From Nitrospirota bacterium (GTDB lineage: Bacteria > Nitrospirota > UBA9217): 64,000 nt of DNA. The notes beneath the pieces were generated by a model. The model was given only the letters and a program-made list of their open reading frames with translations. It made no database searches and was not told the origin of the DNA. Positions 1-16,777 of the stretch are shown piece by piece (the first letter of the stretch is position 1; each line of letters opens with the position of its first letter). Location: NCBI GenBank assembly GCA_963751455.1, contig CAVVUN010000012.1:544001-608000 (forward strand). The letters are read 5' to 3'. The translations under genes and the position numbers were made by a program.

Positions 1-745
1 TGGCCTCCTCGACCCGGCCCAGTTCCTCATAGGCGCGGGACATCTGATACAGCACCTGATCGTTTCGCTCGTACGTTGGATAATCGTTCAGCAGTTTCTT
101 GTAGAGGTCAACGGCTTCAAGGGCGCCGACCCGCTCCAGGTCATGAGCACCTTCGGCAAGTCCGTCCGCAGCCGAGGCCGGCCCGGGCGCCCAGCCCTGA
201 GCCGCCCTTTTCTCAAAATCGGCCTGCGATTCTCCCAGCACCGGGCCCTGCGCCGGTGCAGGAACAGAGGAGCGCGTGGGTTGCGCCGTAAGCTTCGGAG
301 AGGGCAAGGCGGCGGCCCGCCGCTCTGCTGCGGTATCGCCGGAAAGAAGGCCATATTCCCTTTCGACCTTCAGATCTGCCAGGCGGCGAATAGCCTCCGG
401 CGACAGGGCCGCGTCCGGCTTTTCTTCCAGAAACCGCCGGTAACCCTCCATGGCTTTTTCGAGTCCGCCTTCGATCTTCTCGTCCTTGATTTCGATCTGC
501 ATGTTACGCAACTTGGCAATCGTATCCTTGCCGCCGCCCGTTTGACAGGCGCTCAGGAGCAGCGGCAGCGCGAGCACGATGATTTGGTAAAAAGTCGAAA
601 ATCGCCGATGGACCGTCATTCCGGCTTGTCCGGAATCGTTTCTAATTAGCGCGTTATACGGCAATTCGATTCCCGACAAGCGGGAATGACGACTTTTTAC
701 GAGTTTATCAAGTACGCTCCATCGAAGCCGATTGGTTGTCTTCAT
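1..745 (-). CDS. TPR-repeat lipoprotein, 5' part only (runs off the left edge; absent from the ORF track)
   Basis: Hand translation from ATG at 745 (ATGA overlap with the upstream stop at 742): MKTTNRLRWSVL-[44-aa insert]-VLALPLLLSA-C-QTGGGKDTIAKLRNMQIEIKDEKIEGGLEKAMEGYRRFLEEKPDAALSPEAIRRLADLKVE...AVDLYKKLLNDYPTYERNDQVLYQMSRAYEELGRVEEA. Lipobox LSAC and TPR-like helices. Confidence 0.88.
   Translation of the reverse strand, partial: MKTTNRLRWSVLDKLVKSRHSRLSGIELPYNALIRNDSGQAGMTVHRRFSTFYQIIVLALPLLLSACQTGGGKDTIAKLRNMQIEIKDEKIEGGLEKAMEGYRRFLEEKPDAALSPEAIRRLADLKVEREYGLLSGDTAAERRAAALPSPKLTAQPTRSSVPAPAQGPVLGESQADFEKRAAQGWAPGPASAADGLAEGAHDLERVGALEAVDLYKKLLNDYPTYERNDQVLYQMSRAYEELGRVEEA
578..709. mobile_element. 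132-bp MITE (family B, GTAAAAAGTC-type ends) inserted in frame in the TPR gene
   Basis: Inverted ends GATGATTTGGTAAAAAGTCG...CGACTTTTTACGAGTTTATC; internal GTCATTCC...GGAATGAC palindrome; flanks GAGCAC/AAGTAC look like a decayed 6-bp target duplication; same family as 25313-25445. Confidence 0.85.
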
Positions 746-2631
746 TGCCCGGTCTCCTTGCGGAGTTGGGCCTTGCTGGCCCGATCATAGCTGTCCGCCA
801 GGGCGAAGCGCGCCTTGACCTGGAATTCATCAAGACGGTCACGACGTTTGGTGAGTTCATTCACTGCCATCATCTCGAGCATCTGCCCCTGGCGCGCCAT
901 CAGTTCCCGCACTTTTTCCCGGGCGGCCGTGATCCGGGCCCGCTGGCTGCGGATTACATCGCGGTAGCCCTGGTAGCTTTGCGTGGCAGCCTGGCGTGTA
1001 CGCACAAAGGAAGTGTACTGCTTCCGCAGCAAGTCGATGACTTGATTCAGCTCTCGAAGGTTTTTGTGCGCCACCGTAAGGCGCTGGTCATATTCCGTAT
1101 GAATGTTCCAGTCCAGCACTCCGCGCAGCCGCCTGATCCGGTCGCTATTCCCGGGCGCGATTACGGCACCGCCGGCCGTCAGCGTCTGCTCCAGATGTGC
1201 CAGCTGTTCGCCGATGACACGCTCTTCAGCTGTGGCAAGATAATCGGGGCGAGGCGCTACCAGCATGGTCTGGAGCCGTTGTTCGATCCGGTCACGCTGC
1301 TCCAGCCGCAACCGCATCTGCGAGTCGAGCCGTCTGAATTCCCGGTCGATCGCAGGCAACAGCGGCTTGTAATACGCCTCACGCTGCTCGATGATATCCT
1401 CAAAGGCGACCAGGTCCCCCGGCCAGACCTCCAGTTTTTTGCGCAACTGCTCAAGATCGAGATAATTTTTCAGTGATTCCTGGAAATCATGGGAGGCCAT
1501 CAAATCGAGCAGGTAGAATGTCTCGGGCGTTTCCGGCAGCTCGCGCAGCTTGACAACCCAGTTGGCGTCCTGTTCCAGCTCTTCCCGCACCAGGGCCTTG
1601 AGAAATTTGCCTTCGCGGATGCTGGTGATAGAGGCGCTGAGCTTGTCAATCTCCTTGCCGAACGCCTCCAGGGCCTTACCATACTTCAGCGCCGCCTGGC
1701 TGTACACGCCGAGCTTCGCATACGCATAGGGTACGGCAAGCATGGCTTCCTGCACCGCCGAATCCGTGACCTCGCGTTCAGCCAGGAGGGTCCACGGCGC
1801 CAGGGCATTTTCGAACCGTTCCCGGAAGGCGTCGGCCCAACCCGAACCAAGCAGCGCGCGGTTGGAAAACGGCCCGCTCAGGCGCACCCTGTCGAGCACC
1901 TCCTTGGCGCCCTCGAAATTATTTTCATTCAGCAGCTTTTCGCCGAGCACAAGGTTCGCTTTGTCCTTGATCGCCAGCGTGGCCGGATTATCGCTCTCAA
2001 TCCGGCCGGTAAGGTCGAGATAGTGACGCCCTTCCCGGGCGTTCCCGCTCTTGAGCAGCACGATCCCGAGGTTATACGTGGTAAAACCTTCAAGGCTCCC
2101 GGCGCCCTGGAGATCTTTCAGTATACGGGTCGCATCATCGAAGCGGCCGTTGGCCATAAGGACGTGCGCCTGCAGAAACGCCAGATCATCGCGAATTTCT
2201 CCGGGAACAGCGCCCTTGATGCGGTCCAGGGCATGAATAGCGTTCTCCGGCTGGTCTTTCTGGAAGTATATCCGGGCGAGGCGGAAAATGGCCTCGTTGC
2301 GCACGATCTCCTCGACATTGCCCTCGATCACGGCCTTGATCGCGCGCCCGGCGCGCTGGTGCATGCGGTAGAAAAGCTCGAAATCGCCCACGTTAAACTC
2401 GGCCTGATCAACATGGTAGTAAAGGGAATTGAGTGCAGGCTCATCCAGCCCGCGATACTGCCCAAGCTCACTGTCGAGCCGGGCAATGGCCTCGAACCAG
2501 TCATCTTGATAGGCGTAATACAGTGCCTCGCCGAAATAAAGGTCCTTCAAGTCTTTTGGCGCGGCTGTGCTCGTGGCCAGTGCAGGCGCTGCGAACAACA
2601 GGGAAGCCAGCAAGATAAGGAATCTGGACAT
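742..2631 (-). CDS. Exported TPR-repeat/coiled-coil protein (629 aa)
   Basis: Signal peptide (…FAAPALA), TPR-like helices (YNLGIVLL, ALLGSGWA, AMLAVPYAY), C-terminal coiled coil ending ARFALADSYD; translationally coupled to its neighbours. Confidence 0.88.
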   Translation of the reverse strand: MSRFLILLASLLFAAPALATSTAAPKDLKDLYFGEALYYAYQDDWFEAIARLDSELGQYRGLDEPALNSLYYHVDQAEFNVGDFELFYRMHQRAGRAIKAVIEGNVEEIVRNEAIFRLARIYFQKDQPENAIHALDRIKGAVPGEIRDDLAFLQAHVLMANGRFDDATRILKDLQGAGSLEGFTTYNLGIVLLKSGNAREGRHYLDLTGRIESDNPATLAIKDKANLVLGEKLLNENNFEGAKEVLDRVRLSGPFSNRALLGSGWADAFRERFENALAPWTLLAEREVTDSAVQEAMLAVPYAYAKLGVYSQAALKYGKALEAFGKEIDKLSASITSIREGKFLKALVREELEQDANWVVKLRELPETPETFYLLDLMASHDFQESLKNYLDLEQLRKKLEVWPGDLVAFEDIIEQREAYYKPLLPAIDREFRRLDSQMRLRLEQRDRIEQRLQTMLVAPRPDYLATAEERVIGEQLAHLEQTLTAGGAVIAPGNSDRIRRLRGVLDWNIHTEYDQRLTVAHKNLRELNQVIDLLRKQYTSFVRTRQAATQSYQGYRDVIRSQRARITAAREKVRELMARQGQMLEMMAVNELTKRRDRLDEFQVKARFALADSYDRASKAQLRKETGQ

Positions 2632-2634
2632 ACG

Positions 2635-3159
2635 CTACCAATCCTTAAGCGTGATAGTTTGAGCGTCGGAACCGGCAAGATGAATTTCTACCATCTTGGG
2701 TCCGACGTCCTTGCTGAACTTGAAGCTTTCCGTCCCGCGGAGCTCGGATCCGCCCCCGGTTTTGCCGTTCAGGAGCACCTGCAGGTCGTGCTCGCCGGAT
2801 TTGATATTGCCGGTATAGATGCGCTGCACTCCGCCCTTCAGAAGCGCTTCGAGTTCCTTGAAGGTATAGAGGTGATGAGTGACGGGCTTGCCGTCCAACT
2901 GAACCTCCATCGAATCGAGGCGAAATTTCGCCCCGTTATCCATTGACACAAAGACGGCAACCTGGGTATTGGACGGATACAGCAGCTTCTCTTCGAGCAA
3001 GCTCAGCTCCGCCGCGATACCGAGAACATCGGTCTTGATTTCCTGAACCTGTTCATCCAGACCCTTGATCTGTTCCTTGGAGACTTTTTCCGCATAGGCG
3101 GGAACGGTCAGTATCACCATCGCAATGGAGAGAATGATCCGTCTTGAAATGTGCAACAT
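2635..3159 (-). CDS. Conserved exported hypothetical protein (174 aa; coiled coil plus beta-sandwich)
   Basis: Signal peptide, GGAGG RBS, motifs LEEKLLYP and EALLKGGVQRIYTGN; stop lies 3 bp before the next start. Confidence 0.85.
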   Translation of the reverse strand: MLHISRRIILSIAMVILTVPAYAEKVSKEQIKGLDEQVQEIKTDVLGIAAELSLLEEKLLYPSNTQVAVFVSMDNGAKFRLDSMEVQLDGKPVTHHLYTFKELEALLKGGVQRIYTGNIKSGEHDLQVLLNGKTGGGSELRGTESFKFSKDVGPKMVEIHLAGSDAQTITLKDW

Positions 3160-3439: not shown

Positions 3440-6400
3440 TTATATTTTCCCGATGATATTGATGAAGAGACCCTGGTGTTCGTAATCCATATCGGTCAGA
3501 TCATCAGAGAACTTGCTGAAGTTGTACCCGATTCCCAGCTTGACGTAATTGCCCAGATGCCGGTAAATACCAACCAGTACCCCATCGAGTCGATCGTGCG
3601 CGTCAGGCAGATCGAGCAGGCGGCCTTCGATCAGGGCGTCCCACGTATGCACAATATGCCAGTCAACGCGCAGGATATACAGCGATGCCCGGCTGTCAAA
3701 GTACTCGGGATCGGCCCGGTCCAGGCTAACCTGCGCCAGCCGATAGGCGTACTTGCCGCCCACGGTCCAGCGCGACGTCAGGTCGTACATGACATCAACC
3801 GCCGCAATGTGACTGCGCTGGATAATGCCCGCCGTGCTGGTGCCGCTGAGCTGCTCCGCTGCCGGCACATTGTAAAAATAGGTGTACTTGAGCAGCGCAT
3901 TCAAACGGTCATTGTTGACAGGACGGTAAGCATAGCCCATCACCGCCTCCGTATAGCTGCCGTCGTAGAACTGGCCCTGCGAACTCTCGCTCTGTGAATA
4001 GTTTAATTTGCCGTTGAGGCGCCAGTCCGGAGACAACTGATACCTGAGGCTGTTTTTCAGCAGCCAGGTGGTCCGTTTGATGGTGCTGGTATCCAGCTGC
4101 TCCGAATCATCCACCCGATATTCAAAGGCGCTGGTCATCTTCAGCTTCTTGAATCCATAACCAACGCTCGCTCCGGCCGCCGTTCTCCTGATCTCGGCCC
4201 CTGTCCGATTGTCCCGCAGAGTGCCGAAATCCAGTTTGGCTCCGAGATTAAGACGATCGGTGGGCGCCAGATCGACGCCGGTGGAATGCATGAGACCCGT
4301 GGGGACATCTCCATGGGTATAGCGCTCTTCCAGATAGACACTGGCGCTGTCCGAGTAGCGGGTGCGAAACCCTGACGCCATGTTCCCCTTTCTCGCTCGG
4401 AGGCCGTTGTCCGTGTGCTCGTTCTCCAGGCCATAATTGAGGTAGAGAGTAGTCCGGTCGGAATAAAGATATTCCGTGCCGAGCCGGCCGGCCATTCCAA
4501 GATCCCCTTCGGAGACCTCGCCGTCCAGCTTAAGGCGGTCGGTTACCCGATAACCGCCGCCAGCGCCGATCCGGTCGTTGTCCTCGCGATTGCCGCTCAT
4601 CTGTACCGACTCCTGCGCGAAACCGTAACCGCTCCATCGCGCCTTGGAATCATACAACGCCCTGGCCACCACATCGGTGCGGTGCCCCTCTTCCTGGGTC
4701 AACGGAACCACCGCTGAATTATCCGTGCGTTGGTCCCGGCGCAGGCCCGAACTCATTGTCCAGTGTGCGTTCATTTGATAATCGAAATTCAGTTCAGCGG
4801 CCTCTGTTTCAAGCCCCTGGTCCACAGTCCGTTTGTCGGCCTTGATGTGCATCCCCACACGCTCGGTGATGGGCAATTCCGTTGTGCCGCCAATTTGGGA
4901 CACGTCCCGATCGGCGGCCAGTCCCGGCGCCGCATAGCCCGCCTCGAGCTCCTGGTTGTATAAGGTGAACCGCCCCTTCCCTTTTTCGAAGAGGTCCTGG
5001 AAACCGACGCTGACATCGACGCGGTGGGCCATGGCATCAACATCGGATTGACTCAAAGAGTCGGTGGTGCTGAAATTGAAACCGCCGTCCAGTGAATTCG
5101 TGGTGAAGAGACTCGACCCCTTGCTGCGGCCGGCTTCGAGCTTGACCCAGGTATTGGAGGATTTGCGGATGGTCACATCCGCGCCATCCAGGTTGTTATC
5201 ATCTCCCTCTTCCTCGTTCCGGCTGGCGGTCACGCCGACCTTGACATTGTCGCCGAACCAGTAATGTCCCCGGCCGCCAAATGCCATCGCATCCAGGTGC
5301 TCAACCCCGGGCGTGAATTCGTAACGGACAACCAGAAAGACGGGGTTGCCGCCGGTCGAGTCACTCTGCACCAGCAGAGAGTCGTCCGCCGTCGAAGCCA
5401 GGGGTTGGGACAGCAGCAAGCGGCCCTGCAAATAGTCGAGCTCGTAATCCAGAGCCGGCAACAGGTTTTTAACAGCAAGCACCATGCCTGAATCCTTGTC
5501 GCGGACCTCGATGCGCACCCGTTCCGAACCGGTAAGAATGTCCTGCCGGCGCAGGAAGTAGAGTGACCCGCTCGTCCCGCGGAATTCATCACGCCCGGCC
5601 ATTGTGCCCGGTTCGGCGGCAAACCCGTCGAGCAGGAAGCGCTGCTCGCCGAAGCTGGCAGTGTCAAGGGTCTGATAATGCAAATTGGCCCCGTACAGCC
5701 CGCGGTCGACGTGCGCCAGGTCGTTACCGGTATAGCCGATCTTGAAATTGCCCCAGAGGCCGTAGTTTCGATCCTTGCTCAGCATGGCGTAGAATTTCCC
5801 CATGGTTGGTGCATCTTCTACAACGCTGCTGTCATCGCCATAGGTTGGCATGTGGTAATCCGGATCGATACGCCGGAACAGCGCATCAGGCGACTTGTCC
5901 AGGAAGTTGCTGAAGATCTCGTCCAGCGGCCCTTCGCGCGTATCGGCGCTGGCTGTCAGCCCCCAGCCGTTGCCGAACCGGCCTTTCGTATAGAAGGCAA
6001 ACCGTCCCTGGAGGTCAAAGTCATCGCTGTATTGCGGCTTGTCCGGGGCGAGCAGCTTGGCCGGGCCGTTGGTCTTGTTGCGCGACAGGGTCAGGTCGGC
6101 GATGCCCACCGTGAACCAGCCGTTCTTCTCCAGCGCCAGATCGCGCAGATAGAGTTCACCGTTGCCGGACTTGTCAAGCACGGCCACCTCAACGGTATGC
6201 AGACCCGCCGGCAGGATTTCTTCGGCTATGAAACGGCCCTTGTCATCCACCGGCACCGGGTATCCGGCCAGCCAGACGCCGTATCCGGCCGGGATCGCGC
6301 TGCCATGGGCCTGCACGACTCCGCCGCTCAGCGGGATGTTCCGGCTCGCGATACGGCTTTCACCATAGCCCACACGCAATTCCGTACGCGGGTCGGACTG

Positions 6401-8548
6401 GATAACGACCGGATCGATCTGGTCGACCACCCACAGCGGCTGGGCCGTGGTCTCGTCGAATTGATCTTTCGCAGCGTACACGCGGACCAGATATTTGAGC
6501 TCCCGGCCCGGCGCCGACAAAGTTTCGAAAACGGGCTGCCATTCAGCCATGCCCTCATCATTCATGGGGATGACGGCCATTGGCGTGTCACGGACAGACT
6601 GGGCCTCATCGAAAACCCTGACCTCCGCCCGCTTGATAAAGGTGTTGTAGTTGGCGTAGAGCCGAAAGCGGACCAGGTTCTCGGCAAACTCGGTCTCCGC
6701 AAGGTCCTGATAGCGGATGCTGCGCGGCCATGCGGTTACGTTCAGCCGCGGCTCCGCCTTCAGGTTGTCGTATTTGAACTCGATGCGGGCATGGTCAAGG
6801 GCCACGTCAATACAGCGCTGCACGTCCGGAATGCTCTTGCCCGGATCGTCGATCGGCTTGCCGTCAACGGTGATGCGCATGAGATTCAGGCCAAACGGAT
6901 TGGTTGTGCTCACCTCGCGGGTCATACGGGTGATATCCACCCCTTCGTAGTTATCGAGGGCGACGAGTTCATCATAGATAACCTGCACCTCGACCCGCGA
7001 TGTGTCCGACTCGATGAAGCCGACATTGACCACGTCCGCGGTCTGGACATAGCCCCGGCCTTCAAACTCCGCCTGCTGCTCGGTCAGTCCCATCTGCCCG
7101 CGCACCGCGGTCATGGCCCGGCGGGCACGCGCAGTGGACCAGCCGATATCGTCGCCATAAACCGAAGCGGTGCGCCGGTCGAGCCGCTTGTTGCTGGTAT
7201 AGCCGATAAAGCGCAAGCGGACGTTGACCTTGTCCTTGATCTCTTCCATGAGCCGCTTCAACCGCTCCGTATAACCGGCAGGCAGGACCGGGGCGCCCTT
7301 TTCGAACAGTACCGGAGCAATGCCGCCCGACGGCGGGTCATAGACCTTGGTGACCGTTTCAGCGCCGGCATCTTCCGGACACAGCCGCGGCTCAGCAGGC
7401 AGGTCCTGGAGCGGATCGTCATGCCAGAATTCGACCTCGACGCGCCGGTTCATGGCCCTGCCCTGCGGCGTGTCATTGGAGGCGGCTTGCGTCGCTCCTT
7501 TGCCCTCGGTTTCAACCGCGACATTGGACAAACGCAGAGCGTCATGGACCGCAAGGGCAACACGCCGCGCCACCGCCTTCGACATTCCCAGATGGTCGCC
7601 GTAGATACGCTCGTCGCGCCCTTCCAGCGGGGTATTGTCGGTATAGGCAGTGAATTTGACGGTGATATTTTCTTTGGCTCTCAAATTGATCAGCGCCTGT
7701 CCGATCTGCTGCAGAAATTCTTCCGGCACGGTCACCATGCTCTTTTCGTAATGCATGGGCGCAACCAGGTTCTTGACGCGGGCCCGATGGAAATGGCCTT
7801 CCTTATAACGCAATTTGCAGACCGTCTCGGTGCGGCAAACCTTGACGCGATTCACCTGCCGGGGAACGATCACTTCCTTTTCGACCAGCTTTTCGCTGAT
7901 CTCGTCATACCAGACCTCAACCTCCACCCGCCGGTTGAGCGCCCGGCCCGCCTTGGTGGCATTGCTGGCGATTGGCCGGCTCTCTCCCAAACCCTCATAG
8001 GAGATGGCTTCCGGGGGAAGCCGAAGGGCGCGCTGGCAATATTCGGCGGTAGTGCCCGCGCGTTCCCGGGACAGGCCGGTATTGTCCCTGTATTTCTCCT
8101 TCAGCGCGCCGCTCAGCCCCTGCGAATCGGCGTAGCCGACAAAGTGCAGGCGCACATTCGCGCGATCACGCATGCTCTCGAGCACGCCGCGCAGAAGCGT
8201 CACATACTCCTCGGGAATGTCCGCCTCACCCTGGCGGAAACGGATGGGCGGGACGACATTCGCCAACTTGATCGTCTTCACTTTCTTTTCCGCGATCTGT
8301 CGCAACTCAGTGCGGTCCCCCTGGTCCTCCGCAAAAACGGACGGATCAAAAAGCCACGGAAAGAAGGCCCTGTCCTTTGGCAGGTGCATTTCCGTCGTTT
8401 CGCCGAATGTGGCAGCCTCCCTTGTTCCCGGGCCCGCAGTCACGGTCGCCGCAGATAATATTTCCGCATAGACAGCGGTCTCCGGTCCGGCTACGGACAT
8501 AACGAACATAAATATAAGGGCGATACAGCGCTTCATCATTAATCCCAT
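3440..8548 (-). CDS. Large outer-membrane protein: three OmpA-like peptidoglycan-binding domains plus a long C-terminal beta-barrel region (1702 aa)
   Basis: Signal peptide; OmpA motifs VGYAD..N..LS..RA..GRALNRRVEV, YTDN..GRAMNRRVEV and a third degenerate copy; last ~900 aa are alternating aromatic/Gly strands ending GLFINIIGKI. Confidence 0.9.
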   Translation of the reverse strand: MGLMMKRCIALIFMFVMSVAGPETAVYAEILSAATVTAGPGTREAATFGETTEMHLPKDRAFFPWLFDPSVFAEDQGDRTELRQIAEKKVKTIKLANVVPPIRFRQGEADIPEEYVTLLRGVLESMRDRANVRLHFVGYADSQGLSGALKEKYRDNTGLSRERAGTTAEYCQRALRLPPEAISYEGLGESRPIASNATKAGRALNRRVEVEVWYDEISEKLVEKEVIVPRQVNRVKVCRTETVCKLRYKEGHFHRARVKNLVAPMHYEKSMVTVPEEFLQQIGQALINLRAKENITVKFTAYTDNTPLEGRDERIYGDHLGMSKAVARRVALAVHDALRLSNVAVETEGKGATQAASNDTPQGRAMNRRVEVEFWHDDPLQDLPAEPRLCPEDAGAETVTKVYDPPSGGIAPVLFEKGAPVLPAGYTERLKRLMEEIKDKVNVRLRFIGYTSNKRLDRRTASVYGDDIGWSTARARRAMTAVRGQMGLTEQQAEFEGRGYVQTADVVNVGFIESDTSRVEVQVIYDELVALDNYEGVDITRMTREVSTTNPFGLNLMRITVDGKPIDDPGKSIPDVQRCIDVALDHARIEFKYDNLKAEPRLNVTAWPRSIRYQDLAETEFAENLVRFRLYANYNTFIKRAEVRVFDEAQSVRDTPMAVIPMNDEGMAEWQPVFETLSAPGRELKYLVRVYAAKDQFDETTAQPLWVVDQIDPVVIQSDPRTELRVGYGESRIASRNIPLSGGVVQAHGSAIPAGYGVWLAGYPVPVDDKGRFIAEEILPAGLHTVEVAVLDKSGNGELYLRDLALEKNGWFTVGIADLTLSRNKTNGPAKLLAPDKPQYSDDFDLQGRFAFYTKGRFGNGWGLTASADTREGPLDEIFSNFLDKSPDALFRRIDPDYHMPTYGDDSSVVEDAPTMGKFYAMLSKDRNYGLWGNFKIGYTGNDLAHVDRGLYGANLHYQTLDTASFGEQRFLLDGFAAEPGTMAGRDEFRGTSGSLYFLRRQDILTGSERVRIEVRDKDSGMVLAVKNLLPALDYELDYLQGRLLLSQPLASTADDSLLVQSDSTGGNPVFLVVRYEFTPGVEHLDAMAFGGRGHYWFGDNVKVGVTASRNEEEGDDNNLDGADVTIRKSSNTWVKLEAGRSKGSSLFTTNSLDGGFNFSTTDSLSQSDVDAMAHRVDVSVGFQDLFEKGKGRFTLYNQELEAGYAAPGLAADRDVSQIGGTTELPITERVGMHIKADKRTVDQGLETEAAELNFDYQMNAHWTMSSGLRRDQRTDNSAVVPLTQEEGHRTDVVARALYDSKARWSGYGFAQESVQMSGNREDNDRIGAGGGYRVTDRLKLDGEVSEGDLGMAGRLGTEYLYSDRTTLYLNYGLENEHTDNGLRARKGNMASGFRTRYSDSASVYLEERYTHGDVPTGLMHSTGVDLAPTDRLNLGAKLDFGTLRDNRTGAEIRRTAAGASVGYGFKKLKMTSAFEYRVDDSEQLDTSTIKRTTWLLKNSLRYQLSPDWRLNGKLNYSQSESSQGQFYDGSYTEAVMGYAYRPVNNDRLNALLKYTYFYNVPAAEQLSGTSTAGIIQRSHIAAVDVMYDLTSRWTVGGKYAYRLAQVSLDRADPEYFDSRASLYILRVDWHIVHTWDALIEGRLLDLPDAHDRLDGVLVGIYRHLGNYVKLGIGYNFSKFSDDLTDMDYEHQGLFINIIGKI

Positions 8549-8613
8549 CTACTCCAAGGAGGTCAATAAGATCCATCCGCAAGGGCTTGCCCAATGCCTG
8601 CCCCGACATTTCA

Positions 8614-8768: not shown

Positions 8769-8792
8769 ATCATCAATCGCATGGCTTCCGCA

Positions 8793-11700
8793 TCAGGGCG
8801 GCGAGCCCCGGCGCCAGAAGACCTCGGTTTCGATCGTGAGCCGATATTTACCATTCCACTTGCCCGTAATCTCCTTCTTCAAGGCTTTGAGACGCTTCTC
8901 TACCAGGCGTTCGTTCTCGATGTCCGCCAGGTACGATAGACGCAGCACCGAGGGCGCTTTCAGCAATTCCTTCAGCAAAAGATCGATCCTCGGCTGCCAA
9001 TGCTGACGCAGCTTCGTGCTCGTCGGTTCGAACGCCCCATCCGCGATATCCATGGACACAACGTGGTGGATCGTTGCTCCGAAGTTGAAGCGCAGCATTT
9101 TGCCGCGCGTGGCGCGCTGCACCCGCGGGTTTTCGGTGGTCATTCGATAGCCGGTGGGCAGGGTGCGATCATCCAACTTCAGGATGAAGTTACTGCCGCG
9201 AATCTCGTCAGGCGCCATTGCACAGGTGACATGGAAGCGTCCGTGCTCGTCAGTGGCGGCAATCAGACCGCGTGCAGTTGCCACGCGCACCCCCGGCAAA
9301 CCCCGCTCGCCCGCGTCCTGCCGCCCGTTCAGGTCGCGATCGTCGAATACCTTGCCGACCACGTCTGTGCAATCGAAGGTCGGGTCGGGGACGACCCGGA
9401 CCGTCGCCGTTGCTGCCTCGGAGAAGGGTCCGCCTGTTTCTGTATTGATCACCTGCGCCTGGTTGACGTACTCGCCTTCCGAGACGCCGGCGCCCGCTAA
9501 CAGCAGCAGCTTGATGGTGTGCTTCTGCTTATAGCCGACGTCGAGATTGTTCCACCCCAATTGCCGGCCGTTAACGGCCGGCTCAAGCGGGGTCCCGTCG
9601 AAGCGGCTTGAGCCTTCCACATACTTGAACCCGGGCGGCAGCGTATCGACGAGGCCCAGAGGGGGCAGCGTGCTGCGCAGGGTGTTCTTGAAGGTGATCG
9701 TGTAGGGAACGAGCTGTCCGCGTGTGACATTTATCAGGGGGCTCGTCTTCGTGATGGAAATCTTTTCCTCGACATACGGATCGACCGGAATATGGTTGTT
9801 GAAGATCTGGTTGGCCGTCGAATCCAGCGTGAGATGCAGGTAGTAGGTGGCGATTGCCCCCGTCGGCGCGGTCGTCGAGACGTGCGCCTCGCATTGCGCC
9901 GTGGCCGGAATGGCGTCAGCGGAACACACCGGCGCCGAATACGGAGCGGTTTTATCACTGGTGGTCGGCAAAAGGACGAGCGACGGCTCCGCCACGTATC
10001 CCGCGGGCACTGCCGTAACCGCGATGAGATAGTCCGCGCCTTCGGGACAATTAGTTGAGTCGAATTTCAGATCGAACTTGTATTCCCCGCTTGCCGGCGT
10101 CACCTGATACTGCTGAGACGAATCGACGAAGCAGCTCGAGGGTAAATCGGTCCCCGTTGACGCCAACCGCATAGTGAGTGTCGCTCCCTCCAGCGGCTTC
10201 CGAAACTCCGACTCATAGATGACGCCATTCGCCGGGATTATGGTTTGCGTCGGGTTCTCGGTGCCCGAAACATTCGGGTCGTCGCTCTTGATCGGCGCGG
10301 GCCATGGGCCTGATAGCTCTGCCTGGTTCAATACAACGGTGCCGCTTTTGAGATCCGTCTTGAGGACAGCCTCGAACTCGATCGTAAGAGTTTCGTTCGG
10401 GCCGATATTCAGGCTATTGACGCTGAGCGTGCCTTCATTGATTTCGTAAGTAACTCCTATGGGCACGACAACGTTCCCGATCGAACCCGGCTGGAACCTC
10501 GGCGTAGCGTTCAGGCGATCGAGCTCATCGAGCAGCGAGAAATTTTCCAGCCGGATACCCGTCGGATTCTGGATGGCGATGGTGTAGCGTAACCGGTCAC
10601 CCGGGTTTCCAATCGGCTTGTCCACGGTCTTCTGTAACGTAAGGGTTGGAATCGGTACGGTCAGCGGCGGCGCGGTCGTGGTGGCCACGTAATCGTTGAA
10701 AGATGGCGTGCCGCTGCCGGTGCGCTCGTAAGCATTGTCGTTGTCAAGGCCGGTCCAGCAGGCAATCACGCTGTTGGTCAACGTCTGACCGGCCACGACC
10801 ATATCAAGCACGCGCACCTGGTAGATAAGGGGGACCGTTGTCCCTTCCGGGAGGTCGATGCCGCTGGCCCAGGTGAGGGTCTGCACTGTGCTCGCTCCAT
10901 CGCCAACCACAGTCGGTTCAACGGTTACGCCGCCGATCCGCGCGCTTCCGGATACATACACCAGCCCGAGGCTCATGGTGTCGGCAACGACGGCATCAAA
11001 GACACTTGAGAAGTCGGCGCCCGTGGCCGACGTCAGGTTCACCGTATAGGTCAGAATGTCACCCGCCTTGGGCGGCGTCGCCGGATTCACGCTCTTGGCC
11101 ACGGTAACTGAAGGCTCAACGATGGTCAGCGGACCGCTCGTGCCGTCGGTCACCGCGCCGGCCGGGATGTCCGTATAGGTATACGATGCAGCATTGGTGA
11201 AACTCGTCCCTCCATTGGCCTGCTCGTTGTTGGCCAGGCGGGCGGTAAGCGTGATCATCGCCTGCCGGCCGGCAGTAATGGCGCCGAGAGCCCAGGTCAG
11301 GGCTTGCCCGGACTGGGTGGTGGTAATGGTCAGGGGCGCGCCGTTCAGGGTGGCCGTGGCGCTCACATACGCAAGGGCGCCGTGCAGGGTGTCGCTCACC
11401 ACCACGTTGGCGAGCGAGGCGTTGACCGGCGTGCCCGGTACGGTGATCTGGTAGGTCACTGTCTCGCCGATGGTCGCCTCCCCGTTTGTCGGCGAAGTAA
11501 TTCTTTTTGCCAGCGATAGGCCGCTCACTATATTCGTCATCCAGACTTGCGCCATATTCGACGAATTGTAGATACGGCCATTAGTCGGCAGTGACGCGTA
11601 CTGGGTCAGCCCGGCCTCATTGCTCCAACTCGTCTGACCGGTAAGATCGGTATGAAAGCCGATGTTGTAGTCGATTGTCACGCACTGGCCCGGATTGACC

Positions 11701-14700
11701 GGCGTGTTGAGCACGAAAGTCATAGTTCCGCCGCGTCCCGGCGAAGGCGTATACGTGTAATCGGTGCCGGCGGCCAGCACTGTGGTGCCCACGGTAACCA
11801 CCGGCGCAGTCATGCTGGCCACATCCAACTGGCTCGCCAGCACGTCAGTAAGCTGGACGTTGTAGGCCGGGGCCAGGCCGTTGTTGCACGAATTCAGCTG
11901 GAACCTCATCACATCATTAGCTATGTAGACCTGGTACGGATTGGCATTGGAACCATCGCCACTGGCTGTCCGACCGACAACTGCGCCGGTCTTGGCGATG
12001 ATCGACATGGCCGGCTGGCGCACGTCAACTCTTTTCGTGGTCGTCAATCGGGCGGGATAGACCGTTGGGTCGCCGCCCGTATAGAAAAGTTTCGCCCTGT
12101 TGTCGAGCAGAATGGATGTGCCATTGGCCACACCCGCGGGCGGCGCATCAATGACGACCTTTGCGACATACCGGATCACCAGGGCGTCGTCAGTCGATGT
12201 GCCGTCCGGCGTGTTGATGATGTCGCCGAACTCCCAACGCAAGGTGCCGGCCGCACCCGCAGCCGGCTGTGTCCCCAGGGTATAACTGAAGTTCGCACCA
12301 CCGATGATTGAAAAGCTTTGCAGCGCCATGCCCGCTGGCAGCGCATCCTCGACCACGACGTTCCGGGTCGTGTATTCCTGCAGATTGAGCGTCAGGTCGT
12401 AGGTGACGGTGTCGCCTACTCGAACGATCGGATCGATGGTGCTCGCCGGGGTCTCGGCATAGGAATCCGTGTTGACCGATTTGGCGATGAAGGTGTTGTT
12501 AACCGTGTTGACAATGACACTGGCCGGGCCGAAGCAATAGTCGTTCGGCAAGGTCGTTGTCGGACAGCCCGCGCCGGTGCGCTCACGCCCTGGGGCTGGA
12601 TTACTCACCGGATCGATCGGATAGTCCTCATCGAGCGAGGTCCAGTCCAGATAAACGCTGTTGGTGAAGGAGCTCCCTGAGTAGGCGTCCACGACCCTTA
12701 CCTGATCGGTGAGCACCAGCGACTGGCCGGCGGGAATGTCGAGACTGCCGTCACCGTTCTCGCGTCCCCAGACCAGGGTGGTGCCGGAGGGCGTGGAGGG
12801 ATTCGCGATAAAGCCGCTGACCGCGACGCCGTTGATCGCGGCCGTGGCGGAACCGGCTACCAGCGCTACGTTCGCCGGCAAGGTGTCGACGATGTTGGCA
12901 TCAAACGCAGTGGAAGTGCCGTTATTGAGAATCGTAACCGTATATTCGAGAATGTCGCCCACCGTGGCGGGATCCGTTGCCGGCTTGCTCATGGGCGAGA
13001 CAAAGCGCACCGTCTTGGCAACGGTCAGGAAAGGTTCGATCACGGTCATGTTGGCGGTTGTGCCCGCGCCGCCGGCCAATTTGGTGCTATCGACGCCGTT
13101 TGCCCGGTTGCAGGTATACGACGCGCTGTTGGTGAAAGGCACGCTGCCCTGGTTAGCGGCGCTGTTCAGCAGCTCCACGGTGATCGAGATCTTCGCCTGT
13201 CCACTGGCAGATAAAGACTTGGCAGGGATATCGATGCCAATGGTCGTGTCTTCAAGGATGAGCGAGTTGCCGCTGCCCGTATTGCTGACCGTCCAGGCGC
13301 CGCCCGATACCACCCGCGCGCTCACAAAGCGCAGGTTGGCGGGCAGAGTATCCAGGATCTGCACGTCGTACAGGGGAACGGTGGTCGCGGTTGCGGGCAC
13401 GGTGATGGTATACTCGAACCGCTCGCCGATCGTGGCGGTTGTCTTTGCAGGGTTCGCCTTCGCCAGCGTGCCCGGAGTCTGGATCTTCACGATGGTGGGA
13501 TCTTCGTCGCCCGGATCTTCGGGCGAGGCCACGCCGTTGACGTACGGGTCATCGCTATCGGCGGTGAAGCCGCCGGCGGCGGTGAGGGTCGCCTGGTTGG
13601 AGACCGTGGTGCCGGTAACGCCTGATCTCAGTTTGATGTCGAAATCGACCACGAGCTGGCCGTTGACATTGACGTTCAGAGTAGGCGCACCATAGATCTG
13701 CAACAGACCCGTAGAGGAATTAAAATTATATGTGGCGCTGTATTGGGTTCCCGTGACAATGCTGACGATGCCAAAGGTGGCCGGATCGAACGAGTTCAGG
13801 TCCAGCTGATCGTTGATCGTGATCGTGTTGATCGTCTGATCAACATTGAAGACTCGCAGCCGGTAGCGCAAGGTGTCACCCGGCGCCGCCGTTGTGGCCG
13901 GGTTCGCAAGACTGGTCAGGTTCTGGACTGTCTTCTCGAAGTAGTAGCCGTGCAGGGCCGCCGTTACGGCCTGGCTGTCCTGATAGTCGATGATCGCTGG
14001 CGTACCGTCGGTAAGTGACCTGACGAATTCGCGACGGCCGGCATGGCTGTTGTCGGCGCTGAACCACTGGGTGACGCCGGCGACGTTGGTAAGCGTTGCG
14101 CCATCATTCGTAAAATCTATATCGAGCTGCGTCTGGTAGGTGATGATCAGGTGCTGCTCGGGCGCGATCTTGGCCGCCGTCGTAAGCATGGTCAGTGTGA
14201 GGTCGCAACCGCTATAGGTGACCGAGTAGTCGGTGTTCGGCATCAACGCCAATCCCGAGCCCGGGGTGCCGCCAGCCGCAATGATCTCGGCAGTAAGCGG
14301 GGTAGGAGGGTTGAGAGAGCCGGGGGGAAGGCCGGTGATGGGGTTGGTGACGCACATGCCGGCGGGGAGCTTGTCGAGGATGGTGGCGTTCCAGGCATCG
14401 CTGCCGCCGGTGTTCTGGACGTCGATGGTAAAGATCGCCGGGTCCCCAACGTTCAGGGCCGTCGCCGGGCTCGTCTTGTTGACCACGAGAACGGGGGCCA
14501 CGATGGTCATCGGCGCCGAGATGCCGGACTCGCCCGGGAGGGGATTAAAGAATTCATTCGCTTCAATGAGGCCGTTCTCATTGAGATCGATCCACCTTGA
14601 AAATTGCCACGTGGCAGTGTTGGTGAACGACAATCCCGGCTGGTTCGTTGGCGTGTCATCGAGGACCACCTCCACCTCGATCACGACCTGCTGATAGGCC

Positions 14701-15536
14701 GCGATATTGGGAAGCGTGAAGTGAAGATACTTATTGGTACTGTCAGGCAGTTGCGTGATCGGCACAGATGTGGTGGTGCCCTTGTAGTGGGCGTTCAAAC
14801 TCTGAAGGGTGAGAGCGGCGCCCGTGGCGGTGAGATCGTCCCAGACCTCGATGTTGCCCAACTCGTGATCTGACGGAGCGCCTGCGGGAAAGTTCATGGA
14901 CGGGATCGTGAGCGTGTAGGTGAAAGGCAGACCGATGGTTGCCGTAGTCGCGGGGGCCTGCTTAGCGATGGTCTCAGCGGGGATCATGATATCCTGGCAT
15001 GAACCACTGAAAGACCCCTCCGGGGAGTTAACTATCCAGAGCTTGTGGTCAATATTGGAACACGCCATATTGCCGTCGAACCAAACATTGTCGAATACAA
15101 TGAGATAGATTGTGGGGTCATTGGTTTGAAAGTTAATGGTTGCGGTCAGCGGATTGGACAGCGGCCAGTTCTGGAACGTGCAAGTCATGTCGATCGTGAC
15201 CTGAACAGGAGAGGCGCCGAGAACATTACCGTCAACCACTCCCTGCACTCCGTTGGCCCAGAATTGGGAGCAAAATTTATCCTCCGCCTGTGCGGAGAAG
15301 GCCGCGCCCAGCAACAGGGCGAAGAGGAGCAGCAGCGGGAAACCGAGCCTTGCGCCGCGTGCTGCCAGCGCTTTAAGGAAACCCTCCCACTTCCAGGCCT
15401 TCCGGCTCGAACACATCCCCCGCAGCAACTCGACTGAGCTCGCCGAAGTCTTACCGCGCAGCGGCAACGCCGCGGCGACCCCAAGTACCCGGGCTGCTCG
15501 AACAAGAAGGCCTGTAAGAGTCTCCTTTAACTTCAT
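8793..15536 (-). CDS. Giant DUF11 / isopeptide-forming fimbrial-domain repeat surface protein (2247 aa) with SdrD-B-like C-terminal region
   Basis: About 11 repeats of xxKT…GDxLxYT(I/L)xVxN…DxLP…NxA; Thr/Val-rich; C-terminal GKVFDDRDLNGRQDAGERGLPGV..TDEHGRFH motif and OmpA-like remnant ending TEVFWRRGSPP; long N-terminal signal region ending FSAQA. Confidence 0.9.
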   Translation of the reverse strand: MKLKETLTGLLVRAARVLGVAAALPLRGKTSASSVELLRGMCSSRKAWKWEGFLKALAARGARLGFPLLLLFALLLGAAFSAQAEDKFCSQFWANGVQGVVDGNVLGASPVQVTIDMTCTFQNWPLSNPLTATINFQTNDPTIYLIVFDNVWFDGNMACSNIDHKLWIVNSPEGSFSGSCQDIMIPAETIAKQAPATTATIGLPFTYTLTIPSMNFPAGAPSDHELGNIEVWDDLTATGAALTLQSLNAHYKGTTTSVPITQLPDSTNKYLHFTLPNIAAYQQVVIEVEVVLDDTPTNQPGLSFTNTATWQFSRWIDLNENGLIEANEFFNPLPGESGISAPMTIVAPVLVVNKTSPATALNVGDPAIFTIDVQNTGGSDAWNATILDKLPAGMCVTNPITGLPPGSLNPPTPLTAEIIAAGGTPGSGLALMPNTDYSVTYSGCDLTLTMLTTAAKIAPEQHLIITYQTQLDIDFTNDGATLTNVAGVTQWFSADNSHAGRREFVRSLTDGTPAIIDYQDSQAVTAALHGYYFEKTVQNLTSLANPATTAAPGDTLRYRLRVFNVDQTINTITINDQLDLNSFDPATFGIVSIVTGTQYSATYNFNSSTGLLQIYGAPTLNVNVNGQLVVDFDIKLRSGVTGTTVSNQATLTAAGGFTADSDDPYVNGVASPEDPGDEDPTIVKIQTPGTLAKANPAKTTATIGERFEYTITVPATATTVPLYDVQILDTLPANLRFVSARVVSGGAWTVSNTGSGNSLILEDTTIGIDIPAKSLSASGQAKISITVELLNSAANQGSVPFTNSASYTCNRANGVDSTKLAGGAGTTANMTVIEPFLTVAKTVRFVSPMSKPATDPATVGDILEYTVTILNNGTSTAFDANIVDTLPANVALVAGSATAAINGVAVSGFIANPSTPSGTTLVWGRENGDGSLDIPAGQSLVLTDQVRVVDAYSGSSFTNSVYLDWTSLDEDYPIDPVSNPAPGRERTGAGCPTTTLPNDYCFGPASVIVNTVNNTFIAKSVNTDSYAETPASTIDPIVRVGDTVTYDLTLNLQEYTTRNVVVEDALPAGMALQSFSIIGGANFSYTLGTQPAAGAAGTLRWEFGDIINTPDGTSTDDALVIRYVAKVVIDAPPAGVANGTSILLDNRAKLFYTGGDPTVYPARLTTTKRVDVRQPAMSIIAKTGAVVGRTASGDGSNANPYQVYIANDVMRFQLNSCNNGLAPAYNVQLTDVLASQLDVASMTAPVVTVGTTVLAAGTDYTYTPSPGRGGTMTFVLNTPVNPGQCVTIDYNIGFHTDLTGQTSWSNEAGLTQYASLPTNGRIYNSSNMAQVWMTNIVSGLSLAKRITSPTNGEATIGETVTYQITVPGTPVNASLANVVVSDTLHGALAYVSATATLNGAPLTITTTQSGQALTWALGAITAGRQAMITLTARLANNEQANGGTSFTNAASYTYTDIPAGAVTDGTSGPLTIVEPSVTVAKSVNPATPPKAGDILTYTVNLTSATGADFSSVFDAVVADTMSLGLVYVSGSARIGGVTVEPTVVGDGASTVQTLTWASGIDLPEGTTVPLIYQVRVLDMVVAGQTLTNSVIACWTGLDNDNAYERTGSGTPSFNDYVATTTAPPLTVPIPTLTLQKTVDKPIGNPGDRLRYTIAIQNPTGIRLENFSLLDELDRLNATPRFQPGSIGNVVVPIGVTYEINEGTLSVNSLNIGPNETLTIEFEAVLKTDLKSGTVVLNQAELSGPWPAPIKSDDPNVSGTENPTQTIIPANGVIYESEFRKPLEGATLTMRLASTGTDLPSSCFVDSSQQYQVTPASGEYKFDLKFDSTNCPEGADYLIAVTAVPAGYVAEPSLVLLPTTSDKTAPYSAPVCSADAIPATAQCEAHVSTTAPTGAIATYYLHLTLDSTANQIFNNHIPVDPYVEEKISITKTSPLINVTRGQLVPYTITFKNTLRSTLPPLGLVDTLPPGFKYVEGSSRFDGTPLEPAVNGRQLGWNNLDVGYKQKHTIKLLLLAGAGVSEGEYVNQAQVINTETGGPFSEAATATVRVVPDPTFDCTDVVGKVFDDRDLNGRQDAGERGLPGVRVATARGLIAATDEHGRFHVTCAMAPDEIRGSNFILKLDDRTLPTGYRMTTENPRVQRATRGKMLRFNFGATIHHVVSMDIADGAFEPTSTKLRQHWQPRIDLLLKELLKAPSVLRLSYLADIENERLVEKRLKALKKEITGKWNGKYRLTIETEVFWRRGSPP
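15427..15450. repeat. 24-bp palindromic mini-element inside the DUF11 gene N-terminus
   Basis: AACTCGACTGAGCTCGCCGAAGTC matches GACTCGGCTGAGCTCGTCGAAGTC at 45531-45554 at 21 of 24 positions. Confidence 0.65.
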
Positions 15537-15686
15537 GCCAAAATCCTGCCCCCGGTTCCGTTCAGCGTTATCATCAATTTGCTTCCAGCGATGGTTTGGC
15601 CAGCCATGGTGGGGACGGTCTCCTTCTTATGTACTGCCGTACCCGGAACCGGGCTGTGGTGTCTGCTTTCGTACCTCAGTCGTTGT

Positions 15687-16238
15687 CTATTCGGACGCCG
15701 CTATAAAATCGCCTCTGCGATTTTTTGCGCGGCAATCCTCGGTCAACGTGGCGCATACCGGCTTCTCCATACCATAGCTGATGAGCGCGATTCGGCTTGA
15801 CAAGATTCCGAGATCAGTCAAATATCTCTTTGCGCTCTGCGCCCTCTGCTGGCCGAGGGCCTGGTTATATTCTCTCGTGCCGCGGTCATCACAATTGCCC
15901 TCTATCCTGATGCTCACTGCGGGATTTGCCTTGAGCCACTGGGCATTCGCCTGCATGACGGCGCTTGCATCTTCACGGATAGAAGAGCTGTCGAAATCAT
16001 AATAGACCGACTGCAGACCGGCTAATGAAGCACCTGCCCGTTCAGCAGGTTCCTGTTTCATCTCGGGCTTCATCTCGGGTTTCGTCTCGGGTTTCGTCTC
16101 GGACTCGGCAACCGGAGCAGGTTCAATCTTTTGCGCTTCGGGTATGGAGCTCAGTTCGACCTTCTTTGGACAACCCCAGAGTGCTAAAAAACATGCTGCC
16201 ACAAGAACAACAAACACACTGATTTTTGCGGTTTTCAT
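15687..16238 (-). CDS. pal: Peptidoglycan-associated lipoprotein (Pal-like)
   Basis: Lipobox LWGC; VYYDFDSSSIR, IEGNCDDRGTREYNQALGQQRA, ISYGMEKP, KNRR; GAGGA RBS. Confidence 0.92.
   Translation of the reverse strand: MKTAKISVFVVLVAACFLALWGCPKKVELSSIPEAQKIEPAPVAESETKPETKPEMKPEMKQEPAERAGASLAGLQSVYYDFDSSSIREDASAVMQANAQWLKANPAVSIRIEGNCDDRGTREYNQALGQQRAQSAKRYLTDLGILSSRIALISYGMEKPVCATLTEDCRAKNRRGDFIAASE
16056..16103. repeat. 12-bp tandem repeat x4 in the Pal linker (E-T/M-K-P)
   Basis: TTTCATCTCGGG CTTCATCTCGGG TTTCGTCTCGGG TTTCGTCTCGGA. Confidence 0.85.
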
Positions 16239-16315
16239 ACTTGGTTCCTCCTATAAGTTAATAGCTTGTGTCTCGCACATAGTATTCCGGCATTTTCAAT
16301 GGATGCTGGACTCAA

Positions 16316-16438
16316 ATAAAAAAGCCGCCAAAAGATCCTTTGGCGGCCCGACAAGCATATAAAACAGAGATTATTCTGTTTTAAGTAGCTTCGTGGCTCT
16401 GCGCCCCGCGGTTTCCCGCAGTTTGCTCTGAGCAAAGT
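16316..16438 (-). ncRNA. GEMM-I (c-di-GMP-I family) riboswitch, A20 variant (predicted 3',3'-cGAMP), proximal copy with intrinsic terminator
   Basis: Minus strand UUUGCUCAGA-GCAAACUGCGG-GAAA-CCGCGGGGCGCAGAGCCACGAAGCUA…UGCUUGUCGGGCCGCCAAA: GCAAAC, GAAA tetraloop, P1 UUUG/CAAA; then GCCGCCAAAG-GAUCU-UUUGGCGGC followed by a U-tract. Confidence 0.9.
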
Positions 16439-16505
16439 AGTTGTGTTGCTGTCGTATTATGGATGCCATCATTATCTTATAGGTAAAGATAATGTCATCG
16501 GCTGT

Positions 16506-16529
16506 TTAGTTCATATCCGTTTTCCTCCT
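16506..16529 (-). other. Strong RBS followed by a 2-codon minigene (ATG AAC TAA) between the riboswitches
   Basis: Minus strand AGGAGG-AAAACGGAT-ATG AAC TAA (ATG at 16514). Confidence 0.5.
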
Positions 16530-16555
16530 GCATGATCAATTTTTAATGGTCTTAA

Positions 16556-16726
16556 ATAAAAAAGCCGCCAAAGATAAATTAACCTTTGGCGGCTCGACTA
16601 GCATAGAAACAGTATGCATTCTCTTTCCGGTGTAAAAAAACTTCGATGAATGAGAATGTGAGTACTGTTTTTTTAGCTTCGTAGCTCTGCGCCCCGCGGT
16701 TTCCCGCAGTTTGCTCTGAGCAAAGT
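16556..16726 (-). ncRNA. GEMM-I riboswitch, A20 variant, distal copy with intrinsic terminator
   Basis: 5' ~50 nt nearly identical to the proximal copy; longer P3 extension; 3' UGCUAGUCGAGCCGCCAAAG…CUUUGGCGGC followed by a U-tract. Confidence 0.9.
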
Positions 16727-16748: not shown

Positions 16749-16777
16749 ACTGTATCATGCCATTTTGACCTTGTCAA
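16749..16777 (-). promoter_or_regulatory. Sigma70-type promoter for the riboswitch/Pal operon
   Basis: TTGACA-17 bp-TACAGT with extended TG, about 20 nt upstream of the distal aptamer. Confidence 0.65.

Follow-up and report, generated by a model that had tools for sequence, protein, structure and literature searches.

The 64,000-base stretch of a Nitrospirota genome analysed here (the window) carries, on its minus strand, two GEMM-I riboswitches arranged in series. Each is followed by an intrinsic terminator, and both stand ahead of a cluster of 12 genes, all on the same strand, that spans 23,438 bases and extends beyond the left edge of the window. Read in the direction of transcription, the leader consists of the following elements:

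16749..16777, minus strand: predicted sigma-70-type promoter with extended -10 (TTGACA, 17 nucleotides, TG-x-TACAGT), ending 23 nucleotides before switch 1
16584..16725, minus strand: riboswitch 1 aptamer, GEMM-I A20 type (A20 at 16715, A47 at 16688, C92 at 16589), with a long insertion in P3
16558..16595, minus strand: predicted intrinsic terminator 1, its 5' arm being the aptamer C92/P1 3' strand (hairpin 16595-16562, U tract 16563-16558)
16438..16557, minus strand: spacer between the switches, with the sequence features described below
16338..16437, minus strand: riboswitch 2 aptamer, GEMM-I A20 type (A20 at 16427, A47 at 16400, C92 at 16343)
16318..16349, minus strand: predicted intrinsic terminator 2, which overlaps with the 3' strand of the aptamer (hairpin 16349-16322, U tract 16323-16318)

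A cmscan search of the whole window against Rfam returned exactly two matches above the gathering score, both on the minus strand and both to RF01051, the cyclic di-GMP (c-di-GMP)-I or GEMM-I family (switch 1: 16585-16725 (-), 51.6 bits, E-value 3.5e-07; switch 2: 16339-16437 (-), 55.5 bits, E-value 3.9e-08). The two matches are full-length (model positions 1-87 of 87) and exceed the 35-bit threshold. Between 15500 and 17100 no other Rfam family reached its gathering score, and the only matches besides were four overlapping ones from the same clan. The first 52 nucleotides of the aptamers are identical at 51 of 52 positions, and the base 5' of GCAAAC is an A in both, the Rfam consensus being G. 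This base is labelled position 20 in what we take to be the Vc2 numbering, as are A47, C92 and the C44-G83 pair. C92, A47 and A18 are kept in both aptamers, together with the GAAA loop and its receptor and the C44-G83 pair. The original prediction, made from the sequence alone, had described two GEMM-I aptamers in series with nearly identical 5' halves, an A at position 20 and a retained C92, all of which is borne out by the covariance model and the alignment to it; the P1 that it gave as UUUG/CAAA is present as well, and is one base pair longer than claimed, with five pairs (CUUUG/CAAAG). From fetched loci we gathered 40 distinct members of this aptamer subtype, of which 30 were aligned and 10, mostly near-duplicates, left out. 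Across these 30 rows, to which the alignment counts given below also refer, the aptamer structure (P1, P2 and P3) pairs in 95.4% of 720 cells, versus 31-44% in slid controls. Nine of the 24 aptamer pairs show changes on both sides, and A47, C92, C44 and G83 are invariant (30/30).

At both switches the aptamer 3' strand, which contains C92 and the P1 partner, doubles as the 5' arm of the terminator, as had been proposed, so that the two folds are mutually exclusive. The terminator hairpins have computed energies of -21.8 kcal/mol (switch 1) and -16.8 kcal/mol (switch 2), with z-scores of -6.4 and -4.1 and none of 200 shuffles equally stable, and six U follow each of them. When the full-length RNA is folded, the terminator forms in both cases (for switch 1, -63.1 versus -42.2 kcal/mol when P1 is imposed; for switch 2, -53.3 versus -35.4 kcal/mol), and C92 is paired in it with a probability of 1.0. 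Even before the terminator is transcribed, ligand-free folding gives P1 pair probabilities of at most 0.03, and a small hairpin that pairs A20 takes the place of P1. Since such models ignore tertiary contacts and the ligand, the absence of P1 fits a fold that depends on the ligand. The alignment carries a further trace of the two alternatives, as a single base that pairs in both folds covaries with both of its partners: its P1 pair is UA in 15 rows, CG in 11 and UG in 4, and its terminator pair is AU in 13, GC in 12 and GU in 2, the base being unpaired in 3. Two of the 30 rows (L240, L241) have no terminator.

The small hairpin of the ligand-free fold could also be read in another way, as a DNA dyad or small hairpin that the conserved 5' segment forms in its own right (TTTGCT-CAG-AGCAAA) and for the sake of which A20 would be kept, and not for ligand choice. 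The dyad arms, A20 included, do pair in that fold, and the inner four dyad pairs are invariant or nearly so across the 30 rows, yet position 12 covaries with position 95, in P1, and not with its dyad partner, and the outer dyad is broken in 11 of the 30 rows. We consider this explanation very improbable.

Folding, covariation and the single conserved promoter together support the predicted arrangement, in which both riboswitches are likely transcriptional ON switches acting in series. Without ligand, the first terminator would form and RNA polymerase would halt at 16560. Ligand binding during transcription would instead close P1 and let the polymerase pass, to meet the same test at 16320, so that overall read-through would be the product of two gates, the gain lying chiefly in a lower leak and a wider range. 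A comparable capture has been described for the pilM ON switch of Geobacter metallireducens, which responds to cGAMP (3',3'-cyclic GMP-AMP) and whose terminator sequesters the ligand-pairing C (PMC9262584).

This serial reading requires one transcript through both switches. The promoter form TTGACA-17-TGnTAnAnT lies upstream of all 11 aligned first or single switches of the subtype (11/11) and does not occur in the spacer ahead of switch 2. Two complete switches with the same pocket residues, each with its own terminator, accordingly lie on one predicted transcript with a conserved promoter before the first only. The pair might nevertheless be a by-product of duplication, or of the loss of an intervening gene, with switch 2 also fed by a promoter of its own and no multiplied control. 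In the spacer there is indeed a stranded AGGAGG that resembles a ribosome site (16529-16524) and is followed by a frame of two codons, ATG-AAC-TAA (16514-16506), and ahead of switch 2 the sequence at 16498-16471 weakly resembles a promoter (10/12). In the related genome G030 a lipoprotein gene sits between switch copies, and subtype members were found mostly as single copies. Against this stand the missing conserved promoter form before switch 2, the intact state of both aptamers and both terminators, a true tandem pair that also occurs in G030, and the tandem pairs that function in Geobacter. We judge the by-product explanation to be distinctly unlikely. The spacer also holds an inverted repeat or hairpin at 16502-16465 (z-score -4.0; 1 of 200 shuffles equally stable), and ribosome site, two-codon frame and inverted repeat may perhaps be a lost-gene remnant, a pause hairpin or an operator.

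The consequences of doubling were explored with a model of two independent gates, each leaking 6% and reaching at most 80%, the values modelled for pilM. The dynamic range rises from 13- to 173-fold, the 10-90% span narrows from 80- to 46-fold, and the effective Hill coefficient is 1.15. In this simple model doubling would do more to tighten the OFF state than to sharpen the response, and the "sharpened switch" of the original prediction was overstated, the main effect being the lower leak. Independent switches with their own terminators on one leader are also found among the pseudo-cooperative tandem c-di-GMP-I riboswitches, which include a triplet in B. thuringiensis, and 347 doublets and 12 triplets of c-di-GMP-I switches are reported in PMC9481103. 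The pair described here differs from them in its A20 pocket and its Nitrospirota host. In G. sulfurreducens, tandem cGAMP switches control omcAHG (GSU2885; PMC6456294, section 8). Both the riboswitch class and the tandem layout are hence already known from Geobacter, and what is new here is the lineage, the target and the set of enzymes.

As for the ligand, the distribution of the subtype and the genes that it and its kin precede point to cGAMP, which the original prediction had named. The subtype pattern with A20 was found in 56 of 301 genomes of the phylum and in 44 of 63 genomes of the family (reversed control, 0), and a somewhat less strict pattern that required C, G or T at position 20 matched none of 64 family genomes. 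Three A20 and three G20 switches are present in this genome, and the family sample comprises 21 A20 and 30 G20 switches among 51 aptamers parsed from 59 Rfam-picked loci. Such a side-by-side occurrence suggests two signals. A second A20 subtype stands before genes for six-haem OmcS homologues in family genomes (L112, L116, L316, L317, L324; E-value 1.9e-82 to PDB 6ef8), and a PilM-like gene (L217, identified by its sequence) is led by a member of the same subtype as the switches described here; the OmcS-like start, searched for with a single motif, was not found in this genome. OmcS and PilM are cGAMP targets in Geobacter (PMC6456294). The Geobacter GEMM-Ib switches (Gs1761/pgcA, Gm0970, pilM and the omcAHG pair) share with the present ones the GEMM-I fold, A20, a terminator that captures the C, the ON logic, the occurrence in tandem copies, and surface or electron-transfer targets (through the OmcS and PilM-like genes of the relatives). 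The switches described here, in contrast, belong to Nitrospirota and form a subtype of their own, marked by the joining strand GCUCAG, by G48 and by a long P3, and their target is a set of adhesin, barrel and Agl-Glt-like genes in a host without a GacA of the Ser+GGDEF type.

Candidate enzymes for making and removing cGAMP are encoded elsewhere in the genome (G000). They are listed here with a further altered HD-GYP protein:

G000:C9:341150-342562, minus strand: Ser/GGDDF protein (P0001) with two membrane helices, HAMP, GGDDF and the Hypr serine, without EAL or HD-GYP
G000:C15:613931-615124, plus strand: GAF-GGEEF protein (L117), encoded between a clpB-like and a thioredoxin-reductase-like gene and carrying both the Hypr Ser and the cross-dimer Tyr
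G000:C1:625099-626379, minus strand: RxxQ HD-GYP protein (RSYQ), by sequence motif
C2:358874-360502, plus strand: RxxY HD-GYP protein, by sequence motif, with the GYP region altered too

Among the 50 PF00990 matches of the GGDEF inventory, the aligned specificity position is Asp in 43, Ser in 2 and Asn in 2, three being unreadable fragments. Of the Hypr-GGDEF signalling that had been postulated, the canonical form is missing, as none of these 50 matches combines Ser with GGDEF as in GacA (motif scan and alignment), and a GSU1937-like Ser/GGDDF candidate is present. This C9 protein matches the description of GSU1937, a Hypr enzyme with two membrane helices, HAMP, Ser and GGDDF, and we infer orthology from this architecture and from homologues in Geobacteraceae, GSU1937 having been compared by its description. 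The C9 protein has homologues in 54 of the 63 genomes of the family and in 82 of the 301 of the phylum, Ser with GGDDF/Y is found in 119 of 120 homologues, and homologues with the same marks and 35-37% identity are present in four of five genomes labelled Geobacteraceae, Geobacter or Geomonas. In G. sulfurreducens, GSU1937 is a producer of cGAMP, and its deletion there lowers a cGAMP reporter by ~25% on fumarate and by ~70% on Fe(III) citrate (PMC8835794). By analogy, the signal read by the switches would be made by the membrane HAMP-GGDDF enzyme with its Hypr serine.

The second candidate, the C15 protein, has the equivalents of Ser348 and Tyr304 of GacA (alignment to PDB 6d9m), and its motif is GGEEF and not GGDEF, leaving no Asp at the motif centre. 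Of 60 family genomes, 58 contain C15-type matches, and all 30 loci read have both Ser and GGEEF (Tyr readable in 24). The protein shares with Geobacter GacA the Ser and the cross-dimer Tyr; it differs in its GGEEF, has a GAF domain and showed no receiver domain. Ser with GGEEF is reported as inactive, natural Ser/Thr enzymes carrying GGDE(F/Y) only (PMC6456294, sections 12 and 13). Set against this published rule, the conserved Ser/GGEEF combination suggests either a binding protein or an exception, and the conserved Ser/Tyr/GGEEF protein offers a natural test of the rule that such a combination cannot bind substrate. Two Asn-type GGDEF domains were also noted, at C15:824707-825885 (-) and C15:406023-406418 (-), the first of which likewise has a Tyr at the cross-dimer position. 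Some twelve GGDEF genes that resemble one another lie within 50 kb at G000:C12:364372-413563 (-), two of them broken by a frameshift or stop (C12:378.5-379 kb and 389.2-389.6 kb).

The removal of cGAMP could be ensured by the RxxQ HD-GYP protein, which carries the same RxxQ as PmxA of Myxococcus. The 17 HD-GYP genes of the genome divide into 15 with RxxK/R, one with RxxY and this one. It is present in 49 of 63 family genomes, and 28 of 30 orthologues have RxxQ, the others RxxH and RxxR. Outside the family a search of the phylum gave 0 matches, the query lacking its last 33 residues and the cut-off being strict, so that absence does not follow. RxxQ is reported to mark cGAMP preference and to occur in 4.69% of HD-GYP domains (bioRxiv 10.1101/600031, 10.1101/2021.11.05.467447). 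The C9 Ser/GGDDF, C15 Ser/Tyr/GGEEF and C1 RxxQ proteins are all conserved across the family. No statistic was drawn on the co-occurrence of switches and enzymes across the phylum, as kin are not independent.

A different source of the ligand could be imagined in a cyclic-oligonucleotide-based anti-phage signalling system (CBASS), whose cyclase would tie infection to a change of the cell surface. A CBASS-type set is indeed encoded at G000:C6:270458-273081 (-) (L242), with a patatin phospholipase effector, the cyclase and an E2 protein, and some such cyclases are known to make 3',3'-cGAMP. The switch, however, is family-wide and CBASS typically patchy, and we give this origin hardly any credence.

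The more serious competitor keeps the tandem ON mechanism and makes c-di-GMP the cellular ligand, A20 being a habit of the lineage that is read via a protonated adenine. Position 20 contacts the ligand base (PMC6140456), but A20 does not settle the ligand, since the Vc2 G20A variant is bispecific (c-di-GMP 53 nM, cGAMP 120 nM) and Cbe 1-2 of Clostridium beijerinckii, an A20 switch found in nature, prefers c-di-GMP (30 nM versus 463 nM for cGAMP; both PMC6140456). Likewise, the A variant of Desulfobacca acetoxidans (cluster 3) gains cGAMP binding with c-di-GMP binding hardly reduced (PMC9481103). All three have the same A20/A47/C92 pocket as the switches described here. Several features of the present system also speak against cGAMP. 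The 43 Asp-type GGDEF domains indicate extensive c-di-GMP signalling, in a genome without an enzyme of the GacA type, and adhesins are classic targets of c-di-GMP ON switches. Both aptamers have a G at position 48, as do 27 of the 30 aligned members of the subtype; no statement on switch distribution or on position 48 was found in PMC5473149 and PMC5888326. One G20 switch, too, leads an OmcS-like gene (L099). On the enzyme side, 9 of the 63 family genomes lack a C9 homologue, among them several with an A20 switch (G004, G014, G015, G025, G069; drafts), and such a homologue is present in families in which the switch pattern was not found (f2, 5 of 6 genomes; f24, 5 of 5). The active GSU1937 fusion made c-di-GMP as well as cGAMP (PMC8835794). 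One RxxQ protein in 17 is unremarkable given the 4.69% background (~56% chance), so that its evidential weight comes from its retention in 28 of 30 orthologues.

What c-di-GMP as the ligand fits poorly is, first, that G20 switches coexist in the same genomes and that the subtype with G, C or U at position 20 was nonetheless found in 0 of 64. It is also hard to reconcile with Ser/GGDDF and RxxQ proteins across the family, and with targets, OmcS and PilM-like, that match those of the cGAMP regulon in Geobacter. The host family thereby differs from those of the bispecific A20 switches in carrying candidate signatures of a cGAMP synthase and phosphodiesterase. Weighing these observations, which come from sequence comparison, we think that the switches probably respond to 3',3'-cGAMP, either selectively or alongside c-di-GMP, and consider it a good deal less probable that c-di-GMP is the ligand that counts in the cell. 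This preference rests on context and not on A20 by itself, which is not decisive.

The genes that follow the switches encode an apparent surface and envelope system:

15687..16238, minus strand: pal, a Pal-type peptidoglycan-binding lipoprotein of 183 amino acids (TIGR02802, 128.9 bits, cut-off 125.35; PF00691), with AGGAGG at 16252-16247
8793..15536, minus strand: fimbrial-type surface protein with DUF11 repeats and isopeptide domains, at most 2247 amino acids (PF01345, seven stretches; TIGR01451 and TIGR04226 above cut-off)
3440..8548, minus strand: 1702-amino-acid protein with OmpA-type peptidoglycan-binding domains and a C-terminal predicted very large beta-barrel (profile matches, AlphaFold2)
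2635..3159, minus strand: conserved exported protein of 174 amino acids without family match, heading the TPR/TolQ/ExbD/AgmX block (profile searches, homologues)
742..2631, minus strand: TPR protein of 629 amino acids (profile match)
1..784, minus strand: start of a TPR protein of ~1130 amino acids, with which the cluster continues beyond the window
G000:C12:544784 to 536801, minus strand: cluster outside the window, encoding TPR, small, TolQ/ExbB-like, two ExbD/TolR-like and AgmX/GltG-like proteins
C12:536249-536124, minus strand: third A20 switch (L003), near-identical and with the same promoter form, after the cluster

The DUF11 protein is a candidate adhesin, judging from its repeats, and its true start possibly lies ~40 codons further in. 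For the last 898 amino acids of the OmpA-barrel protein, AlphaFold2 predicted nearly all strands with a mean pLDDT (predicted local distance difference test) of 70 and a pTM (predicted template-modelling score) of 0.54, and a fold search with this model returned generic outer-membrane barrel matches only, with template-modelling scores of at most 0.30. On the strength of the model we regard this protein as a candidate outlet or anchor. The barrel region (3440-6136 (-), ~900 residues) has 57-73% identical homologues in Nitrospirota, Desulfobacterota and others. Further along, the tolQ model matched with an E-value of 3e-20 and the tolR/ExbD models with 1e-09 and 3e-05, all under the equivalog cut-offs, and the AgmX/PglI domain reached 57.2 bits (cut-off 40) in the AgmX/GltG-like protein, for which a comparison with Pal revealed no relation. 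Three TPR proteins belong to the cluster, and the GltE model matched with an E-value of 7e-06 only, far under its cut-off. By gene content this part resembles the Agl-Glt core complex (gltC, D, E, G and aglQ, R, S; PMC3169522), with which it has in common TPR proteins, a TolQ-like protein, two ExbD-like proteins, a GltG-like C-terminal domain and a small extra gene; the full-length GltG and GltE models remain under their cut-offs here. What sets it apart from that complex is that riboswitches and the genes for Pal, the DUF11 protein and the OmpA-barrel protein precede it. For non-gliding bacteria the function of the Agl-Glt core complex is stated to be unknown (PMC3169522). The third A20 switch leads genes for a ~149-amino-acid lipoprotein, a PEGA/carboxypeptidase-regulatory-domain protein, exported proteins and an ABC peptide-binding protein, and this arrangement of switch and lipoprotein recurs in many family genomes.

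An adhesin or secretion operon of more than 16 kb had been proposed as the target. A surface and envelope target is what we find, in a cluster of 23.4 kb, and control of the whole of it rather than of its first genes is inferred. The more restricted version, which would fit either ligand, is that the switches govern the first gene or two (pal, perhaps DUF11) and that the barrel gene and the TPR/TolQ/ExbD block have a start of their own. Intergenic gaps of 150, 244 and 280 nucleotides occur among the first genes, two of them with long, stable hairpins, and a weak terminator-like site lies at 3247-3234, so that the transcript may not reach the end of the cluster. Seven of the nine DUF11 clusters fetched from relatives moreover have no switch directly upstream: one has it 2.5 kb upstream, and the other six, which mostly follow a receiver-domain-like regulator gene (read from sequence), have none in the fetched stretch. 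Both observations argue for a shorter reach. In the other two (G030 and G061), the same A20 switch lies directly before the DUF11 gene, and the leader in G030 consists of a tandem pair, the lipoprotein gene and a third switch copy. Relatives also link the switch to the distal block, as five of the 28 family genomes with the 174-amino-acid gene lack the barrel gene upstream of it, and in all five a GEMM-I switch directly precedes the 174-amino-acid gene (A20 read in three). Furthermore, all 12 genes share one strand, and promoter-like sites in window positions 1-16300 are at chance level (5 versus 6.3 expected). Restriction to the first genes seems to us the less plausible version, though one to be taken seriously. 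If the whole cluster is controlled, the switches would turn on, for surface attachment, Pal, an adhesin of fimbrial type, a large barrel of the outer membrane and an envelope machine that is made of TolQ, ExbD, TPR and AgmX proteins and driven by protons. Two of the gaps (3160-3439 and 8549-8792) contain long hairpins made of short repeated words.

These elements can be assembled, tentatively and with a good deal of doubt, into a family-wide cGAMP network that operates without GacA. In it, the C9 and C15 proteins would write the signal, the RxxQ HD-GYP would erase it and the A20 switches would read it, the outputs being OmcS-type cytochromes, pili and, by way of the doubled switch, a fimbrial adhesin exported by a new giant barrel that the Agl-Glt core complex energises. 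If true, such a network would give the non-gliding Agl-Glt core complex its first regulator and a function, the target of the switches tying the signal to this complex, and would point to mineral-surface respiration in uncultured Nitrospirota. Riboswitch-read cGAMP signalling is documented mainly in Geobacter, and a complete candidate set of reader, writer and eraser, conserved in a whole family of Nitrospirota, would extend it to another phylum. Among the papers listed by our literature search, none deals with a Nitrospirota cGAMP/Hypr riboswitch system, although the founding A20/Hypr taxon lists may include Nitrospirota, which makes the novelty of the lineage uncertain; nor does any of those listed link DUF11 clusters to riboswitches or GGDDF to such a system. 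All parts are open to test in E. coli or in vitro, for which culture of the host is not needed.

Two further arrangements were observed around switch-led TPR clusters in relatives (L246 and L256): in one genome the cluster starts directly after a transfer-messenger RNA gene, a common insertion site, and in another the opposite strand carries a cobalamin riboswitch a short way upstream. The host itself is, as expected from the original prediction, rich in multihaem proteins, with 61 reading frames that contain at least three CxxCH motifs. Within the window, multihaem cytochrome genes lie at 48685-50076, 53306-57397 and 59378-64000, containing 13, 21 and 32 or more CxxCH motifs, respectively, two of them with PKD domains, and two paralogous large proteins with bacterial Ig-like domains are encoded at 22105-25170 and 45837-48200.

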